From a virus: a stretch of 40,836 nt of DNA. A model generated the notes under the pieces. It did no database searches and was not told the origin of the DNA. It worked only from the letters and a program-made list of their open reading frames with translations. Numbering within the stretch: position 1 is the stretch's first letter; the number at the start of each line of letters is the position of its first letter. The stretch covers positions 1 through 40,836 of the IMG/VR virus record IMGVR_UViG_3300034138_000059; one strand, given 5' to 3'. The translations under genes were made by a program, and so were the position numbers. Positions 1-40,680 of this stretch are shown here, piece after piece.

Positions 1-127
1 GGGGCCGCTTCGTCGTTCCCGGGGTCACTGCCGGCGCCTCCGGCGGGTCGCGGGTGCGTACCGCTCGGCCAGCTCGGCCCGGAGGTCGTCGCGCTCTCCC
101 GACGAGAGGCGCCCGGTGCCCTTCGGC
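1..127. repeat. Left copy of an exact 127-bp terminal direct repeat (identical to 40710-40836)
   Basis: Read base by base: GGGGCCGCTTCGTCGTTCCCGGGGTCACTG...GGTGCCCTTCGGC is present at both window ends. It contains the 3' end of the 25..339 gene. Confidence 0.97.
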
Positions 128-339
128 ATCAGGTACCCGTCTGGGTAGGAGTAGGGCCGCCGCTTCACGAAGCGCCCGCGACGATCGAGCACGTAGGCCC
201 GTTGCCCCCCGCACCGGATGCAGACGAGTCCCTGGTCGAAGGCCCCGGACGCCCGGTCCCGGCTCACCGTGCCGGCCTTCCAGGCGTGCCCCCAGAGCCG
301 GCACTCCAGGAACTCGGTCGGCATGTCCTCGCCGGGCAT
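25..339 (-). CDS. Hypothetical 104-aa Cys/His protein (possible zinc ribbon), translationally coupled to the integrase
   Basis: C-terminal part of track ORF 25..1302. The ATG at 339 overlaps the integrase stop (ATGA). Third codon positions are almost all G/C when read by eye. C13, H18, C40-x2-C43 are present. The remaining N-terminal part of the track ORF is Arg/Pro/Gly junk. Confidence 0.75.
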   Translation of the reverse strand: MPGEDMPTEFLECRLWGHAWKAGTVSRDRASGAFDQGLVCIRCGGQRAYVLDRRGRFVKRRPYSYPDGYLMPKGTGRLSSGERDDLRAELAERYAPATRRRRRQ

Positions 340-1358: not shown

Positions 1359-1524
1359 GAGGGCTTCACCCCGTCCGCGACGCACCCCGGGCACAAGTCC
1401 AGCGCGCCCGGGAGTTCGGTTCGACCGCCGGCTCCTCGGAGCGCGGCGCGGGCTTGAGTGGCGGACTGGCGGCTCGCCGTGGTCACGCACGCACAGCCGT
1501 CGCAGATGATCACGTACTCCACGC

Positions 1525-1842
1525 TCACCGGAAGGCCCTCCAGCCAGCGTCAAGGCAGGCCGTGGCGAAGCCGTCGGCCGCTACCTGCCAGGCCGCGGGC
1601 TGACGGGTGCTGCGGATCAGCGCGCGGGCCGCGAGTGGGAGCGTGGTCACGCTCGACCTGGAGGCCCACTCCTGGACCTTCGACGCCAGGGCCTTGCGCT
1701 CGTCGAGAGTGAGGCCCGACTCGTAGCCCTCGGCGAAGTCGTCGCAGGCGAGTCGGCCGGCGTCGTCGAGAGTCCGGCCGGCGGGCGCCCCGCACGCCGA
1801 CAGGAGCACGACGAGGACGACGGCGGCGAGCTTCGCGCGCAT
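1525..1842 (-). CDS. Putative secreted lipoprotein (105 aa)
   Basis: MRAKLAAVVLVVLLSAC gives a signal peptide with lipobox L-S-A-C. The ATG at 1842 overlaps the stop of the upstream small gene (ATGA). The upstream part of track ORF 1525..2151 is Arg-rich and rejected. Confidence 0.8.
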   Translation of the reverse strand: MRAKLAAVVLVVLLSACGAPAGRTLDDAGRLACDDFAEGYESGLTLDERKALASKVQEWASRSSVTTLPLAARALIRSTRQPAAWQVAADGFATACLDAGWRAFR

Positions 1843-2015
1843 CAGGGCACCAGCTCGACTTCGACGTCGACGAGGTCGTCGATCGACCAATTGCCGTCGA
1901 CGTCCCTCACGATCTGGTCGTAGCCCTCCTTGGACAGGCCGGTCGGGTCTTCGAGGTCGAGGTACTCGTCGTCCAGCTCCTCGACCTCGATGTAGCCCAT
2001 GATCTTGATCCGCAT
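1842..2015 (-). CDS. Hypothetical acidic 57-aa protein (not in the ORF track, below its length cutoff)
   Basis: My translation: MRIKIMGYIEVEELDDEYLDLEDPTGLSKEGYDQIVRDVDGNWSIDDLVDVEVELVP. GAGGAGA RBS lies 6 nt upstream of the ATG at 2015. The stop overlaps the lipoprotein start. Confidence 0.7.
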   Translation of the reverse strand: MRIKIMGYIEVEELDDEYLDLEDPTGLSKEGYDQIVRDVDGNWSIDDLVDVEVELVP

Positions 2016-2101
2016 TGACGTCTCCTCGATGGGAACGGTGACAGATAAGCCCTATTACCCTACGGAGTGTAGGGGCACTTTTCGACCCGGGGGGAGCTGA
2101 A

Positions 2102-2338
2102 TCAGAGCAGGTGTGAGACTGGCTCGGACGGGTCGTGCAGCTCGGGAGCACAGGCGACCATGCCGCAGAGGGAGCAGCGGGTCATCGTTCTGTCGGTGGT
2201 CTCTGGTACGTCCTCGACGGGCTCGCCGACGGCGAACCACCGGGCGTGGATCTCCCGCTGGAGCGCGAGGTTGCAGTGCTCGATGTGCTGGACGCGCCGC
2301 GGGTCGAAGGGGGCGAGGGCTTCGAGGTCGAGCTTCAC
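2102..2338 (-). CDS. Hypothetical 78-aa Cys/His-rich protein
   Basis: Track ORF with plausible composition (HIEHC...CSLCGMVAC). The start overlaps the upstream stop (ATGA at 2335-2338). Confidence 0.75.
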   Translation of the reverse strand: MKLDLEALAPFDPRRVQHIEHCNLALQREIHARWFAVGEPVEDVPETTDRTMTRCSLCGMVACAPELHDPSEPVSHLL

Positions 2339-2559
2339 GACGCCTCACCGTGCCGGACCCGGACCGTCATCGGCACGAGCGGCACGAGCGTCGCCTCGTC
2401 GAAGGCGTCACCGTCGTAGGCGGCCGAGCCGCACCAGAGGCACCAGGCGCCCAGTACGACCCCGTCGGCCACGGCGAAGATGTCGACGAGGACGTGCCCC
2501 GCCGAGAGGCAGGAAAGGGCGGGAGGACTGGTCACCTCGAAGCCCGCGTAGGGCTTCAC
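2335..2559 (-). CDS. Hypothetical 74-aa protein
   Basis: C-terminal part of track ORF 2335..3015. The GTG at 2559 overlaps the stop of the upstream gene (GTGA). Sequence VKPYAGFEVTSPPALSC... Confidence 0.65.
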   Translation of the reverse strand: MKPYAGFEVTSPPALSCLSAGHVLVDIFAVADGVVLGAWCLWCGSAAYDGDAFDEATLVPLVPMTVRVRHGEAS

Positions 2560-3080
2560 CGGACGATCCCGACCGTGAGCCAGGCCTGGTACCCCAGGAG
2601 GACGACGAGCACCGGGGCGACCAGGGCGCGCTCGACGACCCCGCCGGACTTCAGGCCGACGCCGACGTGGCCCCACCACGGCGCGAGCGGGATGCCGGCG
2701 GCCCGGCCCCAGCCGGCACGCCCGTGGACGAAGTCGCCGATCAGGTGCGAGGTCCAGCCGGCGATCAGCGCCCAGGCGATCCAGGCCCAGCCGGCCGGGA
2801 CGAGCAGGAAGACCACGACCGCGGCGCCGGCCGGCAGGCCCCACCAGTGCGAGAGCCCCCGGTGCTGGAGCGGCCCGCCGCGGCCGAGCAGCTCGTCCGG
2901 CACGAGGGCGTCGGTCCTTCTCCAGGAGCGGTACTGGTCGGCGTCCGGTGACGTCGGGCCGTCCGACGTCACCGAGGCCAGACCGGCGCCCGCGAGCACC
3001 TGCCACCAGGGCCACCCGGCCGCGAGCCCCAGGCCGAAGCCCGAGGCCGCGCCGAGCAGGTTGTGCGTGACCCGGTTCAC
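2556..3080 (-). CDS. YdjM/DUF457-like membrane-bound metal-dependent hydrolase (174 aa)
   Basis: N-terminal VTHNLLGA, then HRGLSHW and SHLIGDF histidine motifs spread over several hydrophobic helices, the pattern of the YdjM family. The GTG at 3080 overlaps the upstream stop (GTGA). Confidence 0.65.
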   Translation of the reverse strand: MNRVTHNLLGAASGFGLGLAAGWPWWQVLAGAGLASVTSDGPTSPDADQYRSWRRTDALVPDELLGRGGPLQHRGLSHWWGLPAGAAVVVFLLVPAGWAWIAWALIAGWTSHLIGDFVHGRAGWGRAAGIPLAPWWGHVGVGLKSGGVVERALVAPVLVVLLGYQAWLTVGIVR

Positions 3081-3331
3081 GAGTCGGCCCTCGGGGCCAC
3101 GCCGAGTTCGTCGAGCGCGATGTCGAGCGCTCGGGCGAGCTTCTCGGCCTGCATGACCACCGCGAGGAAACCCGGGGGGCAGGTGTGGCACTCCTCGTCC
3201 CCGATCCGTCGCAGGATGCGGGCCTTCGTGCCGGCGCACTTGTCGAGGGTCTCTTCGATCTCCCAGCGGACGTCGTCCGCGGTAGCGCAGTCGACGGCCT
3301 GGGCGAGGTTGTTCAGTCGTGGGTAGCTCAT
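3077..3331 (-). CDS. Hypothetical 84-aa protein with 4 Cys
   Basis: MSYPRLNNLAQAVDC...KC...CHTC. AAGGAG RBS lies upstream. The ATG at 3331 overlaps the upstream stop (ATGA). Confidence 0.75.
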   Translation of the reverse strand: MSYPRLNNLAQAVDCATADDVRWEIEETLDKCAGTKARILRRIGDEECHTCPPGFLAVVMQAEKLARALDIALDELGVAPRADS

Positions 3332-3612
3332 GCTGCTCTCGGACTCCTTCGTCGTCGTAGCTCGTAGTCCCGCGCGGCCCGGAGCCCTTCGTGGGCGCCG
3401 TCCAGCGCGGCCTGGAGCTTCCAGTCGATCGGGCTCCCCGGTGCCCAGCCGTTCCCCGCCAGGACCGAGGGCTCGTAGCGCTCGGCCACCCAGCGGTCGT
3501 ACTCCCAGAGCGGCGCGCCCTGGTGCTCTCGGAACCACTCCTGCGCGTCGCCCCGGGCCATCTCCACCCAGGGCGACACCGCCGGCTCACTCACGCGATG
3601 TCGACCCGTCAT
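3328..3612 (-). CDS. Hypothetical 94-aa Trp-rich protein
   Basis: C-terminal part of track ORF 3328..3726. Start taken at the ATG at 3612 (MTGRHRVSEP...). First gene of a 4-bp-overlap chain. Start uncertain. Confidence 0.6.
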   Translation of the reverse strand: MTGRHRVSEPAVSPWVEMARGDAQEWFREHQGAPLWEYDRWVAERYEPSVLAGNGWAPGSPIDWKLQAALDGAHEGLRAARDYELRRRRSPRAA

Positions 3613-3622
3613 GCACCTATCG

Positions 3623-4486
3623 TCACGCCTGGGCGGCGTCAACGCGGACGACTTCCGCCAGCTCGCGGTCCAGCCGACGGGCCGACTCCTCGCGCTTCCG
3701 TTCGATCCAGAAGTTGTCCGACCCACCGTGCCGACGGCCCAGCTCGGCCGCCGAGACGTCGTCGAGGCCGGCCAGAGCGGCCAGGATCTCGGCCGCCGCG
3801 GGCCGGCTCGGCGCCGGCCGCTTCATCGAGATCAGCGTCGTCTCGGGCTCGACGGTCGGGCCGACCGCCATCGCCTCCGCTCGGATGCTCTCCGTTCGGA
3901 TCGGGTCCTTCGGAGTCGCCGGCAGGACCGCGAGCGGCTCGGTCAGCGGCGCGTCGCTCGGGAGGATGGTCGGGCCGTTCGGGCTCTCGCTCGGGGTCGC
4001 GCTCGGACGCTCGGGCCGAGCGGCTCGGGTCCGCGCTCGGGTCTTCGGGCTCGCGCTCGGGGTGACGCTCGGGATCTGCTCGGACTCACGCTCGGACTCC
4101 TGCTCGGACCGCTCAGGCTCGGGCTCGGCCGCTCGGGCCTGCTCGAACTCCAGCGCGAGGGTCATCAGGACGACCGTGGCGATCGGGGCGAGGGCGATGA
4201 TCCGGCCCGAGATCGTCGGCTCGGAGGTCGACAGGGCGGCCCAGCACAACCAGGCGAGCCCGACCAGGGTCATCAGCCAGCCGACGATCGCCTTCGGCGA
4301 GTACCGGAGCTTCCAGACCCCGATCAGGATCAGGATGTCCGGCACGAAGGAGAGCGCGAGCTGGCGCCAGCCGTCGGTCCGGTGCTGGCCCAGGTGGTCG
4401 AAGACGTGCGAGACGTTCCAGGCCAGCACGCCGGCCCAGGCGACCGCGGTCACGCGCGTCATCCATCGACGCTCGCTCGGCGGCAT
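3623..4486 (-). CDS. DUF2637-like membrane protein with low-complexity linker and C-terminal domain (287 aa; the track ORF extends to 4549)
   Basis: N-terminal hydrophobic helices with LSFVPDILILIG, as in DUF2637 proteins of actinomycete conjugative elements and phages, followed by a Ser/Glu/Pro-rich linker. I prefer the ATG at 4486 (GGGAGA RBS 8 nt upstream), because the 21 codons up to 4549 have only about 60% GC3. Confidence 0.7.
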   Translation of the reverse strand: MPPSERRWMTRVTAVAWAGVLAWNVSHVFDHLGQHRTDGWRQLALSFVPDILILIGVWKLRYSPKAIVGWLMTLVGLAWLCWAALSTSEPTISGRIIALAPIATVVLMTLALEFEQARAAEPEPERSEQESERESEQIPSVTPSASPKTRARTRAARPERPSATPSESPNGPTILPSDAPLTEPLAVLPATPKDPIRTESIRAEAMAVGPTVEPETTLISMKRPAPSRPAAAEILAALAGLDDVSAAELGRRHGGSDNFWIERKREESARRLDRELAEVVRVDAAQA

Positions 4487-4585
4487 CGGACGGGTCTCCC
4501 AGAGCTTCACGTTCGGATCTCCTTCGGGTCGTTCGGGTCGACGGGACATCGACGTTCGGGACGTGCGCTCGGGTCGGTGCTCGGA

Positions 4586-4891
4586 TCAGAGTCGGCGTGC
4601 TCGCCGCCGCGCGGCCTCCTGGGGGCTTCGGGTCAGCGCCCGAAGCCCCCCGAGCGCGAGGGCGAGGACCCCGAGCACGGCGAGCACGGTCGGGCCGGAC
4701 AGCCCGAACGTGCCCGAGGCCCAGGCCCAGAGCCGAACGGCTCCGAGCCCGAGCGTCCCGAGCGCGACCGCGGCGACCGCGGCGACCAGGAGGTACCGGC
4801 CGCCCCAGCGCCAGAACAGGATGGTCCGGCGGTGCCGGCGGCCGGTCTCGGTCAGCGCGGCGTCGACCATCCGGTCCAGGTCTCGTCCCAT
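4586..4891 (-). CDS. Hypothetical membrane protein (101 aa, 2 predicted TM helices)
   Basis: MGRDLDRMVDAALTETG... followed by YLLVAAVAAVALGTLGLGAV and TVLAVLGVLALALGGL. AGGAGA RBS lies upstream of the ATG at 4891. The upstream part of the track ORF is rejected. Confidence 0.75.
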   Translation of the reverse strand: MGRDLDRMVDAALTETGRRHRRTILFWRWGGRYLLVAAVAAVALGTLGLGAVRLWAWASGTFGLSGPTVLAVLGVLALALGGLRALTRSPQEAARRRARRL

Positions 4892-4902
4892 GATCTGTTC
4901 TC

Positions 4903-5283
4903 CTACTTGTCGGCGGCGAAGTCGCCCGAGCTGGCCTTCTGGCCCCCGAGCATCTGCTCCTCCTCGGCGATGGCGGCCGAGAGGTTCCGGGCGGCCTCCT
5001 CCATGTGGGCCGCGGCGTTGAAGTAGAGCTTCCGGATCTTGCGGGCCGTCAGGATCTTGTCGATCCGCAGCCCCCAGCGGCTCGTCTTGCGGAGCTTCTG
5101 GTAGACGGCCTCGCCGGCCGAGTAGTACCCGTCGGCCCCCTGGACCTCCCGGGCGCGGCACTTCTCGGTGGCGGCGATCAGCTCGCTCGTCGTGCCGGCG
5201 GCCTCGACCGCTCGGGCCGGGTGGCGCACCGGGGCGGTGCCCTGGGCGGCCGGACGGGACCTCGTGCTCGTTTCCATGATCAT
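4903..5283 (-). CDS. Hypothetical 126-aa protein
   Basis: C-terminal part of track ORF 4903..5385. Start at MIMETSTRS (ATG at 5283, alternative at 5277). Helical, Lys/Arg/Ala/Glu-rich C-terminal half. Confidence 0.65.
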   Translation of the reverse strand: MIMETSTRSRPAAQGTAPVRHPARAVEAAGTTSELIAATEKCRAREVQGADGYYSAGEAVYQKLRKTSRWGLRIDKILTARKIRKLYFNAAAHMEEAARNLSAAIAEEEQMLGGQKASSGDFAADK

Positions 5284-5295
5284 CTCACTCTCTGT

Positions 5296-5464
5296 AGCGT
5301 CGGAGCGTTGTGTCGGGCTTGTGTCGGATGCGTCGGAGGCCTGGAGGCCGTTGTGTCGGCGAGGCTCTGACCTGCACCGACGCAACTTGCGTCGGCCGAC
5401 GCATCCCTAGGGAAATGAGCCCCGTGCGGGCACTTGCGTCGGCGCCGTGGCGGACGCCGACGCG
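5296..5464. repeat. Array of ten TG(C/T)GTCGG / CCGAC(G/A)CA 8-mers (clt-like candidate cis site)
   Basis: Forward copies at 5296, 5309, 5320, 5329, 5352, 5388 and 5435. Reverse copies at 5377, 5396 and 5457. Perfect palindrome TGCGTCGGCCGACGCA at 5388-5403. Confidence 0.85.
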
Positions 5465-5466
5465 AG

Positions 5467-7881
5467 TCACTCGTAGTGAGCGTCCGGGTCCTCGCCCGGC
5501 TCGTCACCCGTGGACGGGATGGGCGGGTTGAGGACCCCCAGGCGGACCTTCCAGCTCGCCGGCCGGCGCCCGCGGGCGGACGCCACGCGCTCCGCGAAGC
5601 CGAGCGCGGCCAGCTTGTGCAGCCGCTCGCCGAGGGCCGCTCGCGGGTTGCCGTAGCTGAAGATCCCGGTCTCGGCCCACAGCTCGCCGAGCGTCGACGT
5701 GTCGACCTCGATCCACTCCGGGTTGCCCTTCTTCGCGAAGATCCCTCGGAAGACCTCGATCAGGGCGGCGTCGGCCTCCTCCGGCGTCATCACCTTCTGC
5801 GGCAGCTCGTCGCCGAGGACCATGTCGTCCTCGGGGTCGACGGGCTCCAGCGCCCGTGAGACCCGCGGGTCGATGCCCTCGACGAGCTGGCGGGACTCCT
5901 CGTCGTCGTACAGCTCGCGCGCCTCCTGGCGGGCTTCGCTCTGGTCGATCGAACGCATCTCGTCCTCCTCCTCTTCGGCCGTGATCGGCCCCTGGTTGGT
6001 CTGCAACTTCCCCAGCTCCTCCTCGACGCTGGTCGCCCGGCTCGGGAGGGCGGGCGGGAACTCTGTCGTGACGCCGGCCGCCTGGAGGGCGGGGACGGCG
6101 ATCTCGGCGACCGCGCGGACGGCGGCCTCGGGCGTGCCGGCCGGCGGCGTCATCAGCTCGACCTCGTGCGCCTCCATCCAGTCCTCGCGGTTGCAGCGCT
6201 GGCGCTCCTGGTAGGTCTTGCCGTAGGCGCCCATCGAGGCGATCGAGCCCTGGTCGAGCTTCGCCATGACCGGCGCCCACCACGCGACGTGCCAGTGCAG
6301 GACGTCGGGCGGGATCGGCAGGAAGGTCCGGGCCGGCATCGCCCAGCGCTCCTGGGCGACCAGGGTCGACTCCAGGTAGGACATGCCGGGCTTCGCGTCG
6401 GCCCAGGCCCCCGGGTCGGCGCCGTAGGAGAGCGTCGTGTCCGACAGGGCCATGTTCGCGTCCGAGCTGTCCTTGATCCCGAAGCACCAGCCCCCGCCCA
6501 GCGACGAGCGGAGCGAGGTGTTTATGTTGTCCGCGCTCGCCCGCTGGAGCGAGATCGAGAGCGAGATCCCGACCGACCGGACCTGCTCGCCGAGGCGGAC
6601 GATGTCCTTGTCGAAGAACTCGGCGACGTCGGCGAACTCCTCGATGTGGACGATCAGGTATGGCAGCTTCAGGTGCTTCCAGGCGTCCGGGGTCCACTGC
6701 CGACCCTCGGCCTTGAACTTCTTCTTCAGCAGCGCGAGCGCGCCGGCCCGGTAGTTGACGATGAAGCGGAGGGCCTTCGCCATCGCCGCGGCCTCGGGCT
6801 TGCCGGTCGCGCACCAGTCGACGGCCGGCAGGATGTCGTCCGCGGTCTGGGCGCCCTTCACGGTGTCGACCCACCAGAGGACGACGTCGGGACGGGTGAC
6901 GATCTCGCTCACCTCGTGCAGCTCGGCCTCGGTCTTGCCGGCGCCCGGCATGCCCATGACGAGGTAGGACCGGGCGTTGCGGCCCTTCTTCGGGTCGCCC
7001 GGCCGCACCATCTCGAAGGCCGAGCCGTCCTCGTACCGGCCGAGCCGGCACGGCTCGGCGATCGACTGCCCCGGCCGGCTCGGCCCGGGCCAGGGCGCGG
7101 ACTCGGCGAGGACGTCCTTCGTCACCAGGGTCAGCCGGGTCTTGGAGGCGTCGGTCGGGTCGGGGATGACCCGAGCCGCGGTCGGGGGCAGGCCGGCGAG
7201 CGAGAGCAGGTCCGGCATGCCCTTCGCGATGCTCGCCGACTGCGCGCCCTTGTGCGACAGCACGAACTCGTGACGGACGCCGTCCTCGGACGGCTCGTGC
7301 TTGACGACCCGGACCTTCGCCTTGACGCCGAGGATCTCGGCCAGGTCGTCCGACCCGTCGGTCTGCGGGTGCTCGTCGTGACCCTCGCCCATCACGGCGC
7401 GGGAGCGACGGATGTTCCAGCTCAGCGCGACGAGCGCGGCGAGCAGCGAGTGGCCGTCGACCCAGGGGCGCTGCACCCAGAGGGTCAGCGGTCCGCCCGT
7501 GCTGTCGACGCTGACGAAGCCGATCAGGGTCGTGACCGCGACCGACAGGAGCGCGAAGCCGACGGTCACGGCGGCGCGCCACCGCGTGTAGTCGCCTCGG
7601 GGCTTCGCTTCGTGCAGGGTCACCCAGGCGAAACCGGCGCCCGCGAGCACCAGGACCGCGGCGATGGCGAAGCGCCAGCCAGTCTGGCCCCAGACCGCGT
7701 GCGCGATCATGCCGGCGGCCGGCACGGCCACGAAGCCGCCGATCCACGGACCGAGGTACTCGTCCAGGTCGGTCCCGGGGATGAAGTCGAACCAGCTCTT
7801 CTTCCGCTCGCGGGGCTGGCGCCGCGGTGCCGGAGCCGGCTTCCGGCCGGACGGGCGGGGCTTGCGGGTCGTCGAGGCCAT
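5467..7881 (-). CDS. FtsK/SpoIIIE-family DNA translocase, TraB-like (804 aa, N-terminal TM helices)
   Basis: Walker A GMPGAGKT, Walker B-like YLIVHIEEFADV, and an FtsK-type segment SLQRASADNINTSLRSSLGGGWCFGIKDSSD. Three to four N-terminal hydrophobic helices. C-terminal about 100 aa look like a winged helix. GAAGGAGGA RBS lies 7 nt upstream of the ATG at 7881. Confidence 0.9.
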   Translation of the reverse strand: MASTTRKPRPSGRKPAPAPRRQPRERKKSWFDFIPGTDLDEYLGPWIGGFVAVPAAGMIAHAVWGQTGWRFAIAAVLVLAGAGFAWVTLHEAKPRGDYTRWRAAVTVGFALLSVAVTTLIGFVSVDSTGGPLTLWVQRPWVDGHSLLAALVALSWNIRRSRAVMGEGHDEHPQTDGSDDLAEILGVKAKVRVVKHEPSEDGVRHEFVLSHKGAQSASIAKGMPDLLSLAGLPPTAARVIPDPTDASKTRLTLVTKDVLAESAPWPGPSRPGQSIAEPCRLGRYEDGSAFEMVRPGDPKKGRNARSYLVMGMPGAGKTEAELHEVSEIVTRPDVVLWWVDTVKGAQTADDILPAVDWCATGKPEAAAMAKALRFIVNYRAGALALLKKKFKAEGRQWTPDAWKHLKLPYLIVHIEEFADVAEFFDKDIVRLGEQVRSVGISLSISLQRASADNINTSLRSSLGGGWCFGIKDSSDANMALSDTTLSYGADPGAWADAKPGMSYLESTLVAQERWAMPARTFLPIPPDVLHWHVAWWAPVMAKLDQGSIASMGAYGKTYQERQRCNREDWMEAHEVELMTPPAGTPEAAVRAVAEIAVPALQAAGVTTEFPPALPSRATSVEEELGKLQTNQGPITAEEEEDEMRSIDQSEARQEARELYDDEESRQLVEGIDPRVSRALEPVDPEDDMVLGDELPQKVMTPEEADAALIEVFRGIFAKKGNPEWIEVDTSTLGELWAETGIFSYGNPRAALGERLHKLAALGFAERVASARGRRPASWKVRLGVLNPPIPSTGDEPGEDPDAHYE

Positions 7882-7943
7882 CGGTCAGTCCTCCTTCGGG
7901 GTGGCGGCGAGCGAGCGGGCGGGACGGGACATCGACGCTCGCC

Positions 7944-8345
7944 CTACTTCGTCTGGCCCGGCTGGAGCCGGGCGGGAACGGGGGCGGCCGGAGTGACCGG
8001 CGCCTGGTAGATCACGGTCTTGACGAGCACCGAGTCGGCCGCCGTCAGGAAGCCGCGCGAGGACGGCTGGAACCAGCGGGCGACGTTGTTGTTGTTCAGC
8101 GTCAGCGTCAGCACCTCGTCGGGGCCGCCGTTCACGCTGGCGAGCACGGCCGACCCGACGGTGCTCGGGGCCGGAACCTCCAGGACCAAGACGGTCATGT
8201 TCGGCGACAGCGTCAGCACCTCACCCTCGTCGGTCTGGACCGAGACGAAGCCGGCCGACGTTGACCCCACGACCCCGGAGGACCGGAGTCGCACGCGGGT
8301 GCCGACGGCCAGGGTGCCGAGGGGGGCGGGCTCGCGCTCGGCCAT
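7944..8345 (-). CDS. Hypothetical 133-aa protein
   Basis: C-terminal part of track ORF 7944..8717. The ATG at 8345 overlaps the upstream stop (ATGA). Beta-rich composition (VLVLEVPAPSTVGSAVLASVNGG...). Confidence 0.7.
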   Translation of the reverse strand: MAEREPAPLGTLAVGTRVRLRSSGVVGSTSAGFVSVQTDEGEVLTLSPNMTVLVLEVPAPSTVGSAVLASVNGGPDEVLTLTLNNNNVARWFQPSSRGFLTAADSVLVKTVIYQAPVTPAAPVPARLQPGQTK

Positions 8346-8569
8346 CAGCGCTGGACCTTCGTGCGCTGGACCACGGCCAGGACGAGCGCGGCCGGTCGGC
8401 TGAAGGTGAGCACGAAGGCCACGGAGGCGGCCACGACGACGATCACGCTCAGGTAGTCGCCCCCGCCGCGGACCGCGGTCGACAGGGAGAACAGGAACGT
8501 CAGCACGCAGAGCGCGCGGGTCAAGGCCTGGGTGGTCGGCGGGGTCTTCGTGACGGTCGGGGTCTTCAT
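8345..8569 (-). CDS. Small membrane protein (74 aa, 2 TM helices)
   Basis: Track ORF. Hydrophobic helices LCVLTFLFSLSTAV and VIVVVAASVAFVLTF. ATGA overlaps at both ends. Confidence 0.75.
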   Translation of the reverse strand: MKTPTVTKTPPTTQALTRALCVLTFLFSLSTAVRGGGDYLSVIVVVAASVAFVLTFSRPAALVLAVVQRTKVQR

Positions 8570-8760
8570 GACGGGGTGCTCTCCTTCTGCTTCGCTGCGG
8601 CGAGGACGGCTTCGACGCTGTCCTCGTAGACCTTGATCGGACCCCGGGGGGCCGTGAGCTGGAAGCCGTCCAGCCGACCGGCGAAGTACCAGCGCCGGAC
8701 GGTCTGGCGCTCGACACCGAGGCGCTTCGCGGCTTGCTCGGTGGTCAACGTGGCGCGCAC
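8566..8760 (-). CDS. Helix-turn-helix DNA-binding protein, excisionase/MerR-like (64 aa)
   Basis: LTTEQAAKRLGVERQTVRRWYFAGRL is a typical Xis-family HTH. GTG start at 8760 with a GAGGAGG RBS. First gene of the leftward operon. Confidence 0.8.
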   Translation of the reverse strand: MRATLTTEQAAKRLGVERQTVRRWYFAGRLDGFQLTAPRGPIKVYEDSVEAVLAAAKQKESTPS

Positions 8761-8922
8761 ATCAGGCCTCCTCTCATAGGCAACATCGACAACATCGGGA
8801 TCACAGTCTCACGTCGGACCGTGTCGGCGCAAGCGCATCCCGCAACCGACTGGGATGTTGCGGATGTTGCCGATGTCCCGTAGTGTCGTCCCCGATGTCC
8901 CCGAACGACGAGAGGAACCGCC
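8761..8922. promoter_or_regulatory. Divergent control region with inverted sets of 9-bp-period repeats (CGATGT(T/C)(G/C)C)
   Basis: CAACATCG at 8781 and 8790. GATGTTGC at 8854 and 8863. CGATGTCCC at 8871 and 8893. Candidate rightward promoter: -35 TTGCGG 8858-8863, 17-nt spacer, -10 TAGTGT 8881-8886. Confidence 0.7.
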
Positions 8923-9390
8923 ATGACGATGTCGCCCTACACCGCCGGCCGGATCACGCTGGCGAACGGCAAGGTGCGTGACGCCGTCCGCGCCGAGAAC
9001 GGTGCCGTGGACTACCGCGCTGACCGCGACGTGACCGCCGGCCGCTACGTGAAGTCGACCTGGCGCAAGGCCACCGTGAAGCAGGCCGCCACCTTCGTGC
9101 CCGACGCGCCCGAGGTGGTCGTGGTCGAGAGTGAGGTGCCGACCGCGCCGGCCGCCACGGAGAAGGCGGCTCGCGACGCCCTGGTCGACGCCCAGCTCGA
9201 CGAGGTGCGCAAGCTCCGCGAGGACTACGAGAAGGCCTCCGCCGACCTGGCCGTCTCCGTCCGGGTCTGGCTCGCCCCCCGGCCCGACATCGTCCTGCCG
9301 AGCTACGTCCGGAACGACCTCGACCTCGCGATCTTCGCCTACGAGGCCTGGGACTCGGCCGTCGACGCCCTGCCGGACCTGGAGGCGTGA
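8923..9390 (+). CDS. Hypothetical 155-aa early protein
   Basis: Track ORF with a GAGAGGAA RBS upstream and balanced composition. Confidence 0.8.
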   Translation: MTMSPYTAGRITLANGKVRDAVRAENGAVDYRADRDVTAGRYVKSTWRKATVKQAATFVPDAPEVVVVESEVPTAPAATEKAARDALVDAQLDEVRKLREDYEKASADLAVSVRVWLAPRPDIVLPSYVRNDLDLAIFAYEAWDSAVDALPDLEA

Positions 9391-9393
9391 CCG

Positions 9394-9609
9394 ATGCGCG
9401 AGTTCGGAGCGTTCAACGACGAGGGATGCACCTTCGCCGGCTTCTCCACCCTGGCGAGCGCGGCCGAGGAGGCGGCCTACCAGATGGAGGACGGCGACGA
9501 GTGGGCCTACGCCGCCGAGCTGTGCCCAGACCACGAAGAGCAGGCACGTGACGCCTGCGAGGAGTGCCTGGCCGAAGACGAGACCGACGACGAGGACGAG
9601 GAGGTCTGA
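9394..9609 (+). CDS. Hypothetical very acidic 71-aa protein with 4 Cys
   Basis: Track ORF. 25 of 71 residues are Asp/Glu. C-terminal tail ETDDEDEEV. Cys at positions 12, 44, 55 and 58. Confidence 0.8.
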   Translation: MREFGAFNDEGCTFAGFSTLASAAEEAAYQMEDGDEWAYAAELCPDHEEQARDACEECLAEDETDDEDEEV

Positions 9610-9612
9610 CCG

Positions 9613-9813
9613 ATGCCGAGCTTCGAGCAGATCCTCGCGATCATCCTCGTCGTCGCCTTCCTGAAGCTGGCCGACAAGCTGGTCGACGAGTGGCGCGCCA
9701 CCCGGGGGCACAAGCGCGAGCTGGCCCGCGAGATCCACGACGCCAACGTCCGCTACCTGGAGAAGAACGGCCGGACCCTGGCCGCTCAGCTCACGACCGA
9801 AGGAGAGCGCTGA
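9613..9813 (+). CDS. Small membrane protein (66 aa, N-terminal TM helix)
   Basis: Track ORF. ILAIILVVAFLKLA helix followed by a charged tail. Confidence 0.75.
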   Translation: MPSFEQILAIILVVAFLKLADKLVDEWRATRGHKRELAREIHDANVRYLEKNGRTLAAQLTTEGER

Positions 9814-9815
9814 AC

Positions 9816-10043
9816 ATGAGCCAGCCCCCCGTCCCGAAGGGCGCCGTCCGAGGCATGTCGCCCGCCCGCAACACGGACGGCCAGCCCGGCCGCCTCGTGC
9901 TCTCCGACCACACGGAGCGGCTGGCCCAGGCCCGCTCCCGCGCTCAGTACGAGATCGGCGACATGTACTGGGCCGACATGATCATCGCCGCCTACCTCGA
10001 TCCCGCGCTCGACCTGGAGAAGCTCCGGAAGGACATGGCATGA
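9816..10043 (+). CDS. Hypothetical 75-aa protein
   Basis: C-terminal part of track ORF 9564..10043. ATG at 9816 is preceded by an AAGGAGA RBS. Confidence 0.7.
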   Translation: MSQPPVPKGAVRGMSPARNTDGQPGRLVLSDHTERLAQARSRAQYEIGDMYWADMIIAAYLDPALDLEKLRKDMA

Positions 10044-10261
10044 CCCACGACGAGGAGTTCACCACCGTCTCCCACGCCCACGACGCGATCCTCCAGGCCG
10101 CCCGCCTGTGCATCGCCCTGATGGCCCTCGCGATCATCGCCGGCATGGTCGGCCAGAGCACGGCGTTCGTCGCGCTCGTCGGCGGCATCGGCGCGATCCT
10201 GGTCCACCTCGTCATCGACCTGCTCACCAGCCGCGACGACGACCCGCCGGAGGCTCAGTGA
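10040..10261 (+). CDS. Small membrane protein (73 aa)
   Basis: Track ORF. ATGA overlap with the upstream gene. Two hydrophobic helices. Confidence 0.75.
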   Translation: MTHDEEFTTVSHAHDAILQAARLCIALMALAIIAGMVGQSTAFVALVGGIGAILVHLVIDLLTSRDDDPPEAQ

Positions 10262-10497
10262 TCGGGCCGCTCCCCGAGGGCATGGTCCGGTGCCTGTCCT
10301 GCGGCGGCGTCCGCACACCGGATCAGATGCAGCGGGCGATCGACTTCGGCTGGCGGCCCATCCCCGGCGAGTTCGTGTGCCGAGACGCCGGGCTCTGCTT
10401 CCACTCGATGCGCGCTCGGGGCTTCGACACCGGCCGCTTGACGGCCGACGGACTGGGCCGCATCGTCAAGACCGTCGTGATCGGAGAGGAGGACTGA
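10258..10497 (+). CDS. Hypothetical 79-aa zinc-ribbon-like protein
   Basis: C-terminal part of track ORF 10108..10497. The GTG at 10258 overlaps the upstream stop (GTGA). CLSC...C-x5-C. Alternative ATG at 10282. Confidence 0.65.
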   Translation: MIGPLPEGMVRCLSCGGVRTPDQMQRAIDFGWRPIPGEFVCRDAGLCFHSMRARGFDTGRLTADGLGRIVKTVVIGEED

Positions 10498-10552
10498 TGT
10501 CGTACTGGCTCGATCTCTGGTACCGCTACTGGTGACCACTCCCTGAACAGCA

Positions 10553-10587
10553 CGAAGCCCCCGCCGCGAGATGCGACGGGGGCTTCG
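10553..10587. terminator. Intrinsic terminator hairpin between convergent operons
   Basis: CGAAGCCCCCG (10553-10563), 13-nt loop, CGGGGGCTTCG (10577-10587). Perfect 11-bp stem. Confidence 0.8.
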
Positions 10588-10602
10588 TCGTGCGTCAGGC
10601 CA

Positions 10603-11286
10603 TCAGCAGCGGCCCTTCTTCGCCTGGCCCGGGGGGCACTCCTTCTCGCCCTTGACCTTGTCGGGCTTCACGGCTGGGGCCGCCGGCTCCTCGACGCTCG
10701 GGGGAGGCGTCGAGGGAACCGGCGGCGTCGTCGAGGACGGCGGGGGGGACGTCGTCGACGACCCGGTCGTGCCACCGGCCGTCGGCCCCAACGGGCCAGG
10801 AGGGGGACGGCGGGGCGACCGGCTCTCGGGGGGAGCCGCGGGCGGGGTCGGGCCGGACCGCGGCGGGATGAAGGCGGCCGGCTCGGCGTCGTCGCCCGGC
10901 TGGACGGGCTGGGCGACAGGCTCGGCCGCCCGACCGGGCGATCCCGCCGGCCGGCGCGGTGCCGGCGCCTCCGGGGTCGCCCCCGGTGCCGACGGGGCGA
11001 CCTTCGGGCCGGCGGCCGACGGCGAGGTCGACGACAGCACGCCGCCGAGCAGGAGCACCGCGAGGGAGGCCGTCGCGAGCATGCCGGCGCCGACGCCGAG
11101 GGAGGTCCCGCTGGGCCGAAGGCCCTTCAGTCGGCGGGCGACCGGCGGGCGGACCTTGATCACTTCAAGGCGCTGAGCGCCCCCGGTGGTGGGGGCGAGT
11201 CGGCGCCGGCCGGACGGGACGGGGCGGCGCAGGAAGCGGCGCCGCGTGCGGCTCCACTGGCGTTCGAACCAGAAGCGGATGGACAT
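10603..11286 (-). CDS. Single-pass membrane protein with basic N-terminus and Pro/Ser/Thr-rich extracytoplasmic region (227 aa)
   Basis: Track ORF. GC3 is very high when read by eye. TM helix MLATASLAVLLLGGVL. C-terminal KECPPGQAKKGRC. The ATG lies 4 nt after the repressor stop, so the two are coupled. Confidence 0.75.
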   Translation of the reverse strand: MSIRFWFERQWSRTRRRFLRRPVPSGRRRLAPTTGGAQRLEVIKVRPPVARRLKGLRPSGTSLGVGAGMLATASLAVLLLGGVLSSTSPSAAGPKVAPSAPGATPEAPAPRRPAGSPGRAAEPVAQPVQPGDDAEPAAFIPPRSGPTPPAAPPESRSPRRPPPGPLGPTAGGTTGSSTTSPPPSSTTPPVPSTPPPSVEEPAAPAVKPDKVKGEKECPPGQAKKGRC

Positions 11287-11290
11287 CGGG

Positions 11291-11752
11291 TCAGGCTCCC
11301 ACGGTGAGAAGGTGCGACGGGGTCATCAGCGGAAACCCACGACCCGGGGTCCTCGCCCGGATTGCTGCCGCTTGCTGGACCGCGACGGCGGAGAGCACGG
11401 CGCGGAGTTCGTTCGCCTCTTCGGGGGCGAGCCCGGAGACGAGAGCCGGGTCGAGCTGGAGCGCGATCAGGCCGGGCACGGTGGCCTCCAGGTCCGGGAT
11501 CGCCTGGCGCGCCAGCTCGACCTCGACGCGACGCTCCAGCTCGTCGGCGGGCCAGCCGAGCGCCTCGGAGATCGCGCGGATCACCTGGGGCTCGCGCCAG
11601 CCGTCGGCGTTGAAGAAGCGGCTGACGGTCTTGTAGCTGACCTCGGCCCGGTCGGCGAGGTCGACCTGGGTCAGGTCCAGGGAGTTCATCCGGTCGTAGG
11701 CGGCGCGCCGAACGGTGTGTCGGGCGCGAGCGATCCTCTCTCGGTCGTCCAC
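11291..11752 (-). CDS. XRE-family helix-turn-helix transcriptional regulator, candidate phage repressor (153 aa)
   Basis: LDLTQVDLADRAEVSYKTVSRFFN is a classic XRE HTH. The GTG at 11752 has a GAGAGAGGA RBS 7 nt upstream. No S24 peptidase motif is seen in the C-terminal half. The N-terminal extension of the track ORF is rejected. Confidence 0.8.
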   Translation of the reverse strand: MDDRERIARARHTVRRAAYDRMNSLDLTQVDLADRAEVSYKTVSRFFNADGWREPQVIRAISEALGWPADELERRVEVELARQAIPDLEATVPGLIALQLDPALVSGLAPEEANELRAVLSAVAVQQAAAIRARTPGRGFPLMTPSHLLTVGA

Positions 11753-12106
11753 GGTGCGGTCCTCTCTCGGGTGCAGGTGGGTCACCGAGAAGGCCTTCGA
11801 GGTAGCGGCGGGCTCGCGTATCGGTCGTGCGGCCTTCCCCGTGCTGCACAGGGGCAGGATGTCCCACCCGGACACGACAAGCAACATTCCGTGTCCACGG
11901 ATGCCCCGTTGTCACGCTCCGTGAGTCCTCCAGAGCGTTACATCGGATGTTCACCCCAGGACAGCCCCGGCCGATCGGCCGTCTTGAATGAGACTCGGCG
12001 AACCGCTTGACAGTCCCAGACCGGACCCTCATCCTGGGACTACGGCCAAGGAGGGCCACACAGGGCCACGGGCCCTGACCGGACACCGAGAGAGGAGGCG
12101 GACCGC
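11753..12106. promoter_or_regulatory. Second divergent control region (candidate immunity switch)
   Basis: Candidate promoter: TTGACA 12007-12012, 17-nt spacer, CATCCT 12030-12035. It is overlapped by inverted repeat AGTCCCAG 12012-12019 / CTGGGACT 12034-12041. Second inverted repeat GGACACG 11870-11876 / CGTGTCC 11890-11896. GGATGTCCC at 11857-11865. Confidence 0.6.
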
Positions 12107-12319
12107 ATGAGCCCCACCGAGAAGACCTGGAGCCTCGCCGAGGCCGCCCTGCTCGTCGGCTGCTCGGCCCGCACCCTCCGTCGGAAGCACGCCCTGAAGC
12201 AGGTCGGCGCGATTCGCGTCGGAGGGCACCCGACCCGCGGGCCGCTCCGCTTCACCGAGCAGGACATCGCTACGGCCCGCGCCCTCTGTTACCGGCGCGT
12301 CGAGGCCGAAGCCGCATAG
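12107..12319 (+). CDS. Helix-turn-helix DNA-binding protein, excisionase/MerR-like (70 aa; Cro-like or Xis-like)
   Basis: WSLAEAALLVGCSARTLRRKHAL HTH. GAGAGGAGG RBS. First rightward gene after the control region. Confidence 0.8.
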   Translation: MSPTEKTWSLAEAALLVGCSARTLRRKHALKQVGAIRVGGHPTRGPLRFTEQDIATARALCYRRVEAEAA

Positions 12320-12421
12320 ACATCCGGGCGCGGGCGGCATGCCGAGGCACCCGCTCGCGTCCGGGATCAACTTCCACATCGCGTCGCCTGTCCCGTCGAC
12401 GCACGACAGAAAGGCCCCATC

Positions 12422-12808
12422 GTGAGCGCTCCCCGCTTCGTCTCCGGTCGGTGCCGGACGCACGAGTTCGTGACGGCCGACCCCGCCCTCTTCGAGCAGC
12501 ACATGGTCGGCGAGCACGGCAAGAAGTCCCGGACGGCGTCGGCCGGACGGGCGACCACCTGGCGCACCCCGAACCGCGTGCCGGAGGCGAAGGCCCAGGC
12601 CGCGGCCGGCATGGTCACGGTGGCCGGGCTCGTCGACGGCGAGCTGCTCGCCCAGGTCGTCGGCCCCGCGGCGTGGCCGCGCACCTCCTGGGTCATCCCG
12701 GCCACGCCGACCGGCCGCGAGTTCCAGGGCTGCCTCCTGGTCCGCACCGAGGGCGACCGCCTGGTCGAGGTCAACCACGACCACCTCGTGAATCGACGGG
12801 CCGCCTGA
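12422..12808 (+). CDS. Hypothetical 128-aa protein
   Basis: Track ORF with GTG start and plausible composition. Its stop overlaps the next start (ATGA-type). Confidence 0.7.
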   Translation: MSAPRFVSGRCRTHEFVTADPALFEQHMVGEHGKKSRTASAGRATTWRTPNRVPEAKAQAAAGMVTVAGLVDGELLAQVVGPAAWPRTSWVIPATPTGREFQGCLLVRTEGDRLVEVNHDHLVNRRAA

Positions 12809-18983: not shown

Positions 18984-19039
18984 CCACCTGGACCCCGACA
19001 CGCCCGGGTGCAGAAATCGAAGACACGCCGCATTTTCCA

Positions 19040-19295
19040 GGTACCACCCCCCCTGGTACCTGGCCTGTTGATCATGCCCTGGTACCTGTTGTGGCACCTG
19101 CTCTGACCTGCGCGTCTCTCTATGTGAGACGGGCTTGGTACCTGGGTGGTACTTCGGTTGCCGATGTTGTGGCACCTGCTCTGACCTGCACTTGGTACCT
19201 CTGGTACCTGGGTGGTACTTCGCCTGGCACCTCCCTCCACCCCCCGGTCCTTTAGGACCGGGGGGGTGGTACCTGGGACCTGGGACCTGGAACCC
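19040..19295. repeat. Iteron-like repeat array (putative replication origin)
   Basis: GGTACC at 19040, 19055, 19081, 19137, 19194, 19203 and 19268. GGTACT at 19148 and 19214. 24-bp direct repeat at 19088-19111 and 19166-19189. 21-bp direct repeat at 19136-19156 and 19202-19222. Hairpin at 19237-19269. 7-bp tandem ACCTGGG at 19271-19293. Confidence 0.8.
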
Positions 19296-19325
19296 CTATC
19301 GAACGTCGACGAGAGGAGCCCGAAG

Positions 19326-19799
19326 ATGACCGACAGCCGCGCACCCAACCCGACCGGCACGCCTGCCCGGCCGGCGACCGACCAGGAGATGTCGAAGGGC
19401 GCCCTCGCCCTCCGCGCCTCGGCCCTGAAGGCCGGCTGGCGCGCTCGGGCCGACTACGCCCAGGGCTGGGCCACCGTGACGACGATGGTCGAGGACCGCG
19501 GCGCCGAGCTGACCCCGACCGGCCGGGTCGCCCGGAAGAAGGTCACCGAGGACGCCCTGGTCGATTCCGTCGTCCTGCGGCTGGAGCACCCTCTCGGCGC
19601 GAGCGCGGTCGTCGCCTACGAGGACGGCAAACCCGTCGACGCCTGGGTCTGGGCGACCGGCCTCGCCGCCGGGGTCGCCCGATCGAGCGTGACGGCCATC
19701 TCGACCCTCGTGAAGGGCACCGGCCCGGAGGTCACCGACGCCGAGGTCGCCGACCTCGACGAGTACGACCTGGACCCCGACCTGGAGAGTGCGGCGTGA
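19326..19799 (+). CDS. Hypothetical 157-aa protein
   Basis: C-terminal part of track ORF 19212..19799. ATG at 19326 with a GAGAGGAG RBS. The upstream part overlaps the repeat array and is rejected. Confidence 0.75.
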   Translation: MTDSRAPNPTGTPARPATDQEMSKGALALRASALKAGWRARADYAQGWATVTTMVEDRGAELTPTGRVARKKVTEDALVDSVVLRLEHPLGASAVVAYEDGKPVDAWVWATGLAAGVARSSVTAISTLVKGTGPEVTDAEVADLDEYDLDPDLESAA

Positions 19800-20338
19800 A
19801 GATCATCGGCATCGACCCGAGCCTGACGGCCCCCGGCTTCGCCGGCATCGTGAACGGGCGCGTGGTGGGCACCGAGACCTACGTGCCCTCGAAGATCAAG
19901 GGCCGCGTGACCGAGCAGGCCCGCCACCGTCGCCTCGCCGAGATCCTCGTCGTCGCTCGGGACTGGGCCACCGGGGCCGACCTCGTCGTGATCGAGGGCC
20001 TGGCCTACGACGGGCACGACACGATGCGCCAGCTCGCCGGTCTGCACTGGCTCCTGCGGCACTCGCTCTGGAGCGGCGACCGCACGGTGGCCCTGGTGAC
20101 GCCGAGCAGCCTGAAGGCCTTCGCCACCGGCCGCGGCGGGGCCGACAAGGACGACATGTTGGCCCTGGCCCGCCAGAGCTTCCCCGGGGTCGAGATCGGC
20201 GACCACAACGCCGCGGACGCCCTCTGGCTCGCCGAGACAGGAGCCGCGCACCTGGGATGTCCCGTCCTGGACACGTCAGCCGAACGGGTGACCCACATCC
20301 AGGGCGTTACGTGGCCGAAATCGGACCTTGCAGCATAG
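19796..20338 (+). CDS. RuvC-like Holliday junction resolvase (180 aa)
   Basis: IIGIDPS (catalytic Asp), VVIEGLAY (Glu) and GDHNAADALWLA (Asp/His) motifs in RuvC order. GTGA overlap with the upstream gene. Confidence 0.8.
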   Translation: MKIIGIDPSLTAPGFAGIVNGRVVGTETYVPSKIKGRVTEQARHRRLAEILVVARDWATGADLVVIEGLAYDGHDTMRQLAGLHWLLRHSLWSGDRTVALVTPSSLKAFATGRGGADKDDMLALARQSFPGVEIGDHNAADALWLAETGAAHLGCPVLDTSAERVTHIQGVTWPKSDLAA

Positions 20339-27705: not shown

Positions 27706-27711
27706 TCCACC

Positions 27712-40594: not shown

Positions 40595-40680
40595 CCAGCG
40601 CCACCTCGACTCCGAGTCGACCTCGCCCTACCCTGGACCCGTCGACGGGACATCGACGCTCGGTTCCGGCTCCAGAGCAC

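Follow-up and report, generated by a model that had tools for sequence, protein, structure and literature searches.

Dispersed, orientation-matched 19-22-nt sites share their core with 9-bp-phased arrays in the control region of an uncultured actinophage genome

Short asymmetric DNA motifs that recur in front of genes are known from several systems. In Cluster K mycobacteriophages, start-associated sequences (SAS/ESAS) form a conserved motif that stands upstream of several gene starts and points along transcription; the SAS lies within a few bp of the start codon and overlaps the ribosome-binding site. Cluster A mycobacteriophages carry stoperators, and small excisionase-like proteins recognize direct repeats. 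BldC protomers bind 9-bp direct repeats head-to-tail, and some 22 bp are needed for a dimer (PMC5859096); recombination directionality factors such as Apl have direct-repeat sites at att as well as at the early switch (PMC7498355); and Gp36 of mycobacteriophage D29, which is Xis-like, represses genes downstream of its own direct-repeat site (PMC12266134). In conjugative plasmids of Streptomyces, clt is a cluster of direct 8-bp repeats, and unregulated expression of a TraB-type translocase is toxic in plasmids (PMC4447253). Here we analyse a set of dispersed 19-22-nt sites in a viral DNA stretch of 40,836 nt (IMG/VR virus record IMGVR_UViG_3300034138_000059, hereafter the window) and compare them with these systems.

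The sequence identity of the sites, their statistics, positions and orientation, the 9-bp phasing of related arrays, the class of the candidate protein and the conservation of the motif in one diverged relative are established. On this basis we propose, with a probability of roughly 0.55, that the 19-22-mers are dispersed, orientation-matched sites of an early-switch regulator, most probably Xis/BldC-like, that would serve as operon-internal operators or roadblocks. Judged by their sequence context, they are most likely an ordinary kind of phage regulatory motif.

Long sites and their shared core

Exactly three copies of the 19-mer GACGGGACATCGACG(C/T)TCG are present in the window, at 4540-4558, 7923-7941 and 40644-40662 and all on the + strand, as the first-pass annotation (a model's reading of the sequence) had reported. 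Fifteen nucleotides are identical in all three copies; the second and third share 19 nt, and an 18-mer (minus strand CGTCGATGTCCCGTCGAC) is common to the first and third, which extends the conserved block to about 22 nt. The remaining 15-mers with three copies in the window are GC-only repeats. The first-pass annotation had named flanking homology, and with it an origin in a duplicated segment, as something that would speak against a regulatory role. Homology does not continue beyond about 22 nt, and a duplicated segment was rejected on this ground as the source of the 19-mers.

The first of these sites, S1 (CGAACGTCGATGTCCCGTCGAC, 4537..4558, minus strand), lies in the 75-bp gap between a 101-aa gene (stop 4586-4588) and a gene for a 295-aa membrane protein, for which the earlier label 'DUF2637-like' found no Pfam support. 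The 295-aa gene starts at a GTG at 4510, with the ribosome-binding site GAAGGAG, and S1 is 26-29 nt from this start; we take 4510 as the start because the GTG becomes an ATG there in a sister genome, in which the sequence of S1 is unchanged. A partial copy of the motif noted previously at 4464-4475 does exist, but it is part of the 295-aa coding sequence, does not survive intact in the sister genome, and is probably a product of chance or a relic. S2 (CGAGCGTCGATGTCCCGTCccg, 7920..7941, minus strand) occupies a 62-bp gap, 2 nt past the TAG of a 133-aa gene and 41 nt from the ATG (7881) of an FtsK/TraB-like gene, a distance that had been given as about 40 nt. S3 (CGAGCGTCGATGTCCCGTCGAC, 40641..40662, minus strand) was correctly assigned to the gap on the lysin and integrase side; this gap is convergent, with an endolysin-like gene (stop 40594) on one side and the last leftward gene (25..339) on the other. 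The terminal repeat of the window (1-127 = 40710-40836) identifies it as a complete circular assembly of 40,709 bp, and this circularity places S3 at the far end of the leftward arm. There, 17 nt from a strong bidirectional hairpin at the end of the integrase arm, it faces the endolysin gene in antisense; no credible minus-strand gene follows it.

Two further copies, both in the rightward arm, had been missed. S4 (CGTCGccTGTCCCGTCGAC, 12382..12400, + strand) differs from S1 and S3 by one indel and is preceded by a hairpin (12325-12363), 21 nt 5' of a GTG at 12422. The weaker S5 (GGATGTCCCGTC, 20255..20266, + strand) lies within the 3' end of a RuvC-like gene (19796..20338), co-directional with its transcription. 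S1-S4 are found in gaps of 62-139 bp. S1, S2 and S4 each follow a gene whose end is marked by a GC-rich hairpin, and the next start codon, which in each case has a separate ribosome-binding site, comes 21-41 nt further 3'. As most intergenic gaps of this genome contain hairpins, we give little weight to this association.

The long sites are built around the unit ATGTCCCGT, which is the exact core of S1, S2, S3 and S5 and also forms the third unit of an array in the control region described below, so that the sharing of a core between 19-mers and control regions holds as first proposed. Five copies are present where 0.21 are expected, a number reached in none of 100 shuffles. Of the looser form GATGTCCC, six of eight copies fall in non-coding DNA, which makes up about 10% of the genome as scored; the sites are thus non-random and intergenic. 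A genome-wide search for the core, one of the checks proposed in the first-pass annotation, likewise gave mostly non-coding positions and a non-random orientation of ATGTCCCGT: in either arm, all five copies, and S4 as well, are co-directional with local transcription, and the two additional rightward-arm sites S4 and S5 thereby obey the orientation rule that had been drawn from the original three. The 9-mer CGATGTCCC was recovered at 8871 and 8893 (+ strand) and GGATGTCCC at 11857..11865 (+ strand), near the 5' end of an XRE-family repressor gene, all as previously listed. A degenerate copy, GGATGCCCC, is found at 11903. Altogether there are 5-8 sites, ranging from 40641 across the circle junction to 20266, with none in the structural operon. 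A search of Rfam gave no match for the element.

The ATG contained in the core was also considered as a start codon or as the beginning of an upstream open reading frame (ORF). It is in frame with the gene at S1, and at S2 it begins an ORF of 15 codons whose end is 3 nt short of the FtsK/TraB-like start. This candidate was rejected: the ATG has no ribosome-binding site 5' of it, S4 has no ATG, and the real start of the 295-aa gene is marked by 4510, where the sister genome has ATG for GTG.

Phased arrays and the candidate regulators

The same unit is stacked in tandem on both sides of the divergent control region (8761-8922). On the rightward side, an array at 8853..8881 (+ strand) contains three units in 9-bp phase, GGATGTTGC / GGATGTTGC / CGATGTCCC(GT). 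This array overlaps the predicted -35 box TTGCGG (8858-8863) and the spacer of a rightward promoter, TTGCGG-17-TAGTGT, and abuts its predicted -10 box (8881-8886), which reads TAGGGT in the sister; the assignment of a promoter to 8858-8886 is itself a prediction from the sequence. A second rightward-side core, CGATGTCCCCG (8893..8903, + strand), coincides roughly with +1 of this predicted promoter, 21 nt before an ATG at 8923, and is followed by an ACGAC and ribosome-binding-site leader that is also found after S1 and S4. On the leftward side, four units in 9-bp phase (8769..8804, minus strand), GTGATCCCG / ATGTTGTCG / ATGTTGCCT / ATGAGAGGA, run into the ribosome-binding site of the first leftward gene. 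The two arrays therefore face outwards, each along its own operon. Within 8761-8922, four-mer self-matches number 18 at lag 9 and 0-4 at any other lag, and the same periodicity is seen in L119, a contig of a diverged relative.

The first gene of the leftward operon (8566..8760, minus strand) encodes a 64-aa protein with the Pfam domain HTH_17 (E = 2.7e-7, 31.2 bits against a cut-off of 27) and matches to PHROG excisionase families. Sequence searches against solved structures retrieved Pukovnik Xis (4J2N, E = 6e-4) and BldC (6AMA, E = 0.1), and Foldseek comparison of its AlphaFold model, whose confidence is modest (pLDDT 71), returned RacA, Xis, BldC and P2 Cox at TM 0.6-0.7. The protein thus has the features of its class, a MerR-like winged helix of about 55-75 aa that lacks a dimerisation or effector domain. 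Two other proteins are alternative binders. One is a second Xis-like helix-turn-helix protein of 70 aa in the cro position (12107..12319, + strand; PHROG excisionase E = 4e-5, weak Pfam HTH_17), and the other is the XRE-family repressor candidate (11291..11887, minus strand), whose start is ambiguous between 11887 and 11752 and whose homologue has 153 aa. The XRE protein gave no mycobacteriophage repressor match at E<=1 among solved structures in a sequence search.

An asymmetric unit repeated in phased direct orientation is, by analogy, more in keeping with the Xis/BldC/Cox class than with a dimeric XRE repressor. The combination of 9-bp-phased direct repeats with an Xis/BldC/Cox-like HTH_17 protein leads us to favour the 64-aa protein as the most likely binder, the 12107..12319 paralogue and the XRE repressor appearing less likely. 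This reverses the earlier order of candidates, in which the XRE protein came first: both geometry and protein class point to the HTH_17 protein.

The divergent region next to the XRE gene and the cro-like gene has inverted repeats of another kind, GGACACG-N13-CGTGTCC (11870-11896) and GTCCCAG-N14-CTGGGAC (12015-12042), the latter overlapping a TTGACA -35 box at 12009. These are plausible palindromic operators of the XRE repressor, separate from the asymmetric motif.

Only one diverged relative was found, as two contigs (L119 and L120) from one sample, with an HTH_17 protein 70% identical and an XRE protein 61% identical to those of the window. In the relative, CGATGTCCCGT occupies an intergenic position 17 nt 5' of a gene start; by our estimate the chance of this 11-mer in 2 kb is about 1e-3. 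The gene that follows the core in L119 was examined as an orthologue of the 295-aa gene, and the match was not significant. ATGTCCC is found 5' of the XRE homologue, in L120 at the place that corresponds to the 11857 site, and a five-unit 9-bp array (L119 83-127), equivalent to the leftward-side array, lies 5' of the HTH_17 homologue. The core is retained although the surrounding intergenic sequence has diverged.

From these observations we infer binding by a protein, its probable identity and a repressive effect, along the following lines. The 19-22-mers would be isolated, information-rich copies of the unit that a phage-encoded regulator binds, this unit being ATGTCCCGT or, more loosely, (C/G)GATGT(C/T)(C/G)C, stacked head-to-tail every 9 bp on both sides of 8761-8922. 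Cooperative head-to-tail binding in the control region would cover the -35 box, the spacer and +1 of the rightward promoter as well as the leader of the leftward operon, and its occupancy would set the level of early expression. At S1, S2 and S4, protein bound in the interval from the gene-end hairpin to the following ribosome-binding site would serve as an operon-internal, orientation-matched operator or roadblock, damping the TraB-like gene, the block from the membrane protein to the integrase, and the first gene of the replication module. S3 could stop read-through into lysis-gene antisense or, if attP lies in that gap, serve as an excision-factor site.

Several observations weigh against this proposal. 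Each long site contains a single canonical 9-bp unit, and proteins of the Xis, Apl and BldC type normally need at least two adjacent ones. The conservation of the flanks, CGAGCGTCG and, on the opposite side, GTCGAC, is left unexplained and might reflect a second factor or recent copying, and the hairpin already present 5' of each site would make a roadblock partly redundant. Moreover, HTH_17 and XRE regulators both co-occur with the motif in the sole diverged relative, which does not single out a binder. An exact CGATGTCCC at 31509 (minus strand), absent from the first-pass annotation, lies inside a + strand gene and opposes its direction. Finally, the sisters L068, L069 and L115 keep S1-S3 exactly, but since these genomes are 95-98% identical overall and about 1.5 changes are expected in 57 nt, this identity is weak evidence.

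Alternative explanations and genomic setting

It is unlikely that the 19-22-mers are instead phage-specific promoters or start-site-proximal elements that restart transcription after a gene-end hairpin through host RNA polymerase together with a phage factor or an unusual sigma. Long, contiguous and asymmetric blocks co-directional with transcription would suit such elements, as would the position of S1, S2 and S4 3' of hairpins and 21-41 nt 5' of start codons, the similar leader that follows S1, S4 and the second rightward core, the core at about +1 of the rightward promoter, and a TAGGGC 6 nt 5' of the S2 core, at the same distance as TAGTGT at that promoter. Yet neither a TANNNT -10 box nor a -35 box accompanies S1, S3 or S4; a sigma-70 scan of 1-12500 returned no promoter, TTGCGG-17-TAGTGT being the only canonical-looking one by eye, and the proteins scanned, which were part of the gene set, included neither an RNA polymerase nor a sigma factor. 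Besides, transcription from S3 would only yield antisense RNA into the endolysin gene, and S5 is intragenic. Strict co-orientation with transcription, nearby hairpins and a 5'-leader location just upstream of ribosome-binding sites would also be expected if the element acted in the transcript, as a leader RNA motif serving nut/put-like antitermination, processing or a translational regulator. We consider this improbable: there is no common fold, the surroundings of S1 and S2 fold no more stably than shuffled sequence (z-scores not significant) and those of S4 are similar, Rfam gives no match, and the position of the sites 3' of hairpins is the wrong order for antitermination, whereas phased tandem arrays of the unit in promoter DNA favour recognition as DNA.

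A role in recombination, with the sites as excision-factor or integrase sites or as copies of an att core that mark accreted modules, is very unlikely, although the three direct repeats flank the TraB block (4558-7923) and the integrase block (40662-4540), S3 stands beside the integrase operon where attP is expected, the candidate binder is excisionase-like, and two mosaic-exchange junctions with the sister fall directly after the second rightward core and S4. Searches of viral, genome and metagenome collections with the exact 19-mer gave single scattered matches in unrelated taxa that lack flank homology and provide no attB; with the failure to find a tRNA, this led us to reject an att core. 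The distant relative L070 keeps the module order without the repeats, S4 and S5 lie in the other arm, and neither deletion variants nor integrated forms were seen among the contigs retrieved. A search for integrated copies through the 104-aa and endolysin proteins found none. We regard as highly improbable the idea that the S sites are recognition sequences of the FtsK/TraB-like translocase, either clt or oriented loading sites of the TRS type. The single orientation of the three 19-mers recalls KOPS and SRS, S2 adjoins the TraB-like gene, and the 5' half of the 19-mer, (A)GCGTCG(A), resembles GCGTCGG repeats downstream of that gene. But the 19-mers occur singly at dispersed positions, their core unit recurs in promoter arrays and rightward-arm sites, GCGTCG by itself is not enriched genome-wide, and a separate clustered module downstream of every TraB homologue examined fits the definition of clt far better (PMC4447253); we therefore rejected the 19-mers as TraB recognition sites in favour of this module, which spans 5284-5466 in the window. 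Nor do we give much credence to functionless relics of recent small duplications or of gene conversion of leader segments, for which there is hardly any room: identity of 18-19 of 19 nt does exceed the specificity that a 40-kb genome needs, and S1, S4 and the second rightward core share leader-like downstream sequence, but homology does not continue into longer flanks, orientation and intergenic placement are non-random, and the core is kept in a relative whose regulators are only 61-70% identical and whose intergenic surroundings have diverged.

Dispersed sites of an early-switch regulator thus remain our preferred explanation. A more far-reaching form of it, which we consider quite unlikely, is that a temperate phage here achieves stoperator-style, orientation-dependent silencing through an excisionase-like mini winged-helix protein and not through a two-domain immunity repressor. 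As part of the same joint reading, and held just as tentatively, the network of the 64-aa protein might, by means of one 9-bp unit contained in the 19-22-bp sites, couple the early switch, excision (through S3), expression of the TraB translocase and the start of the replication module. If a regulator does bind, the window would offer a compact case of a small excisionase-like protein that controls several operon-internal junctions from single sites, one of which precedes a gene for a conjugation-type DNA translocase, and the logic of an orientation-matched operator plus roadblock would extend beyond Cluster A mycobacteriophages. The motif is also a signature for spotting relatives of this uncultured actinophage lineage.

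The window comes from metagenome assemblies and has a G+C content of about 71%. Near-identical circles of about 41.3 kb are found in at least three further samples (ERZ27253117, SRR10953298 and JGI 3300034024), and megablast of 3500-12500 (9 kb) against GenBank phage and plasmid collections returned no near-identical DNA. Structural and lysis genes include the large terminase, portal, major head proteins, endolysin and a tape-measure protein with a PhageMin_Tail domain; a tyrosine integrase, a WhiB-like protein, a helicase, a primase-polymerase and a RuvC-like resolvase are also encoded. Structural genes together with integrase and replication genes identify the window as a temperate, siphovirus-like actinophage. 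Its leftward arm runs on the minus strand from 8760 down to 25, with the genes for the HTH_17 protein, a 74-aa protein, the 133-aa protein, the 804-aa FtsK/TraB-like protein and a 126-aa protein, followed by the 101-aa gene, the 295-aa membrane-protein gene, several small genes, the integrase and a 104-aa protein. Six small rightward genes extend from the control region up to 10497, a leftward pair (10603..11887) encodes a 227-aa protein and the XRE repressor, and from 12107 to 40594 all genes are rightward.

The FtsK/TraB-like gene that S2 precedes (5467..7881, minus strand) encodes an 804-aa membrane translocase with the Walker A motif GMPGAGKT. PHROG matches and this motif are the basis for the label it had been given; the Pfam FtsK match has E = 0.083. 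The module downstream of it (5284-5466, minus strand) contains seven GCGTCGG/CCGACGC copies in 167 bp and three copies of CCGACACAA, and it lies 5' of the 126-aa gene, which is TraB-associated in L070, L071 and L074. A conserved non-coding module directly follows each FtsK/TraB-like gene examined and consists of a CCCTA(T)AGGG palindrome and then many copies of a lineage-specific 7-8-mer; it was located at 12329-12491 in L070, 9623-9777 in L071, 2835-2910 in L121 and 2577-2681 in L122, the repeated words being CCGACGAG in L070, CGACACA in L071 and AGCGTCGG in L122. By its sequence organization, 5284-5466 is a candidate clt, the TraB recognition locus.

In the distant TraB-bearing relatives L070, L071, L074, L121 and L122 we found no trace of an equivalent motif; other, lineage-specific repeats are present there. 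L070, whose TraB is 55% identical, has no gaps at the positions of S1 and S2, a different small helix-turn-helix gene in the place of the HTH_17 gene, with no tblastn match to the HTH_17 protein of the window, and a motif set of its own (GTGTAAAC, GTCTAG/GTCTAC with TTGACA) common to its control region and arm gaps. L070 shares with the window the order TraB, 126-aa gene, membrane-protein gene; in L071 and L074 the first two of these are likewise kept together. As the gene order of L070 is kept without the repeats, the sites appear to be lineage-specific regulatory additions and not module scars. L074 has a different lineage-specific, start-proximal repeat, CGCAACCGCC (GCAACCGC at minimum), which stands 5-35 nt 5' of at least six gene starts, co-directional with transcription, in the gaps before the genes at 965, 5289, 6583, 8723, 12416 and 17417. 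L071 is circular (a 19,351-bp contig with 1-141 = 19211-19351, hence 19.2 kb) and carries a PRD1-type capsid gene (Phage_Capsid_P3_N) with an FtsK/TraB-like homologue (44% identical) and its 126-aa partner, which places the same translocase module in a tectivirus-like element.

Closer to the window, the sister has different genes after S4 and after the rightward promoter, with motif and leader kept up to the junction. At S4 it keeps the site, the ribosome-binding site and the start codon, and a DNA methylase gene follows. Comparison of 12320-12808 with 4423-5530 of L068 showed a gene replacement in which a 128-aa gene of the window gives way to a 334-aa DNA methylase gene; homology is lost after the first 3 nt of the gene (window 12425) and returns at about 12798, close to the stop.

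Three other features of the window were observed. A 342-bp non-coding stretch 3' of the primase-polymerase/helicase gene (18984-19325) is full of GGTACC-containing repeats, holds two pairs of 20-26-nt direct repeats (19087/19165 and 19136/19202) and is likely a replication origin. The AT-richer motif GGTAAT-N6-TTATCTGTCAC is common to 2016-2101 (minus strand) and 27706-27820 (+ strand), about 25-35 nt 5' of two unrelated genes, a 57-aa gene (1842..2015) and the gene after the major head gene; the gap 2016-2105 is an island conserved in the sister genome and flanked by swapped genes, and the motif may represent a second family of promoters or regulator sites. Lastly, 2937-3000 in a YdjM-like gene and 7588-7651 in the part of the TraB-like gene that encodes its N-terminal membrane portion are 72% similar over 64 nt, including the exact 19-mer ACCGGCGCCCGCGAGCACC; this probably reflects similarity in the coding of transmembrane segments.

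Comparison with known systems

The operator- or stoperator-like role suggested by the first-pass annotation is still the best reading of placement, core and orientation, but the membership in the Cluster A and Kor families that it had evoked does not hold. Both the Cluster K SAS and the motif of the window precede gene starts; here, however, the motif stands 21-41 nt 5' with a separate ribosome-binding site, and S3 is not followed by a gene. With clt the sites have in common a short, GC-rich and oriented motif near a TraB-like gene, whereas clt is a cluster of repeats and the 19-mers of the window are single and 3-4 kb apart.

The Kil-Kor systems, with the GntR-family regulators TraR and KorA, likewise have a repeat just 5' of the gene for a TraB-like translocase. 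In the window, by contrast, S2 lies outside any traR-traB divergent promoter, the sequence of the S sites also precedes unrelated genes, and the gene 5' of the TraB-like gene encodes the 133-aa protein, which is on the same strand. No GntR- or Kor-type regulator was found among the leftward-arm and early proteins scanned with Pfam, and a Kor-operator role upstream of the TraB-like gene, as first envisaged, therefore finds no partner.

Similarity to the stoperators bound by the repressors of Cluster A phages (L5 gp71, Bxb1, TipsytheTRex) is closer. That family has asymmetric sites at an early promoter and in short intergenic gaps, with an orientation that tracks transcription in both arms (PMC9283540). 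In the window, cores overlap the predicted rightward promoter and S1-S4 lie in short gaps, and orientation agrees for the five ATGTCCCGT copies and S4, the exception being the one 8-mer core at 31509. The differences lie in number and in the repressor: Cluster A genomes have more than 20 sites of 13-14 bp, genome-wide, the window 5-8 sites with a block of 19-22 bp, and the Cluster A repressor is a monomeric two-domain protein (helix-turn-helix plus stoperator domain, L5 gp71-related) that the XRE protein does not match in the sequence search of solved structures. Cluster A operators also lack the 9-bp-phased tandem arrays of the control region. Site number and repressor type thus exclude membership of this family.

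The class formed by BldC, 186 Apl, P2 Cox, D29 Gp36 and Pukovnik Xis differs from the window in that each long site is one canonical unit and not an array, and in that the flanks are conserved, unlike the low-specificity neighbour sites of Apl. A period of 9-11 bp in direct repeats is accordingly seen in the control-region arrays and not in the isolated 19-mers. On the other hand, the closest structures to the 64-aa HTH_17 protein are those of Xis, BldC and Cox; as with Apl and Cox, the sites are found at the early switch and possibly by an integrase arm (PMC7498355); repression of the genes downstream of a site, as proposed here, has its parallel in D29 Gp36 (PMC12266134); and the 9-bp period of the tandem repeats matches the site of a BldC protomer (PMC5859096).

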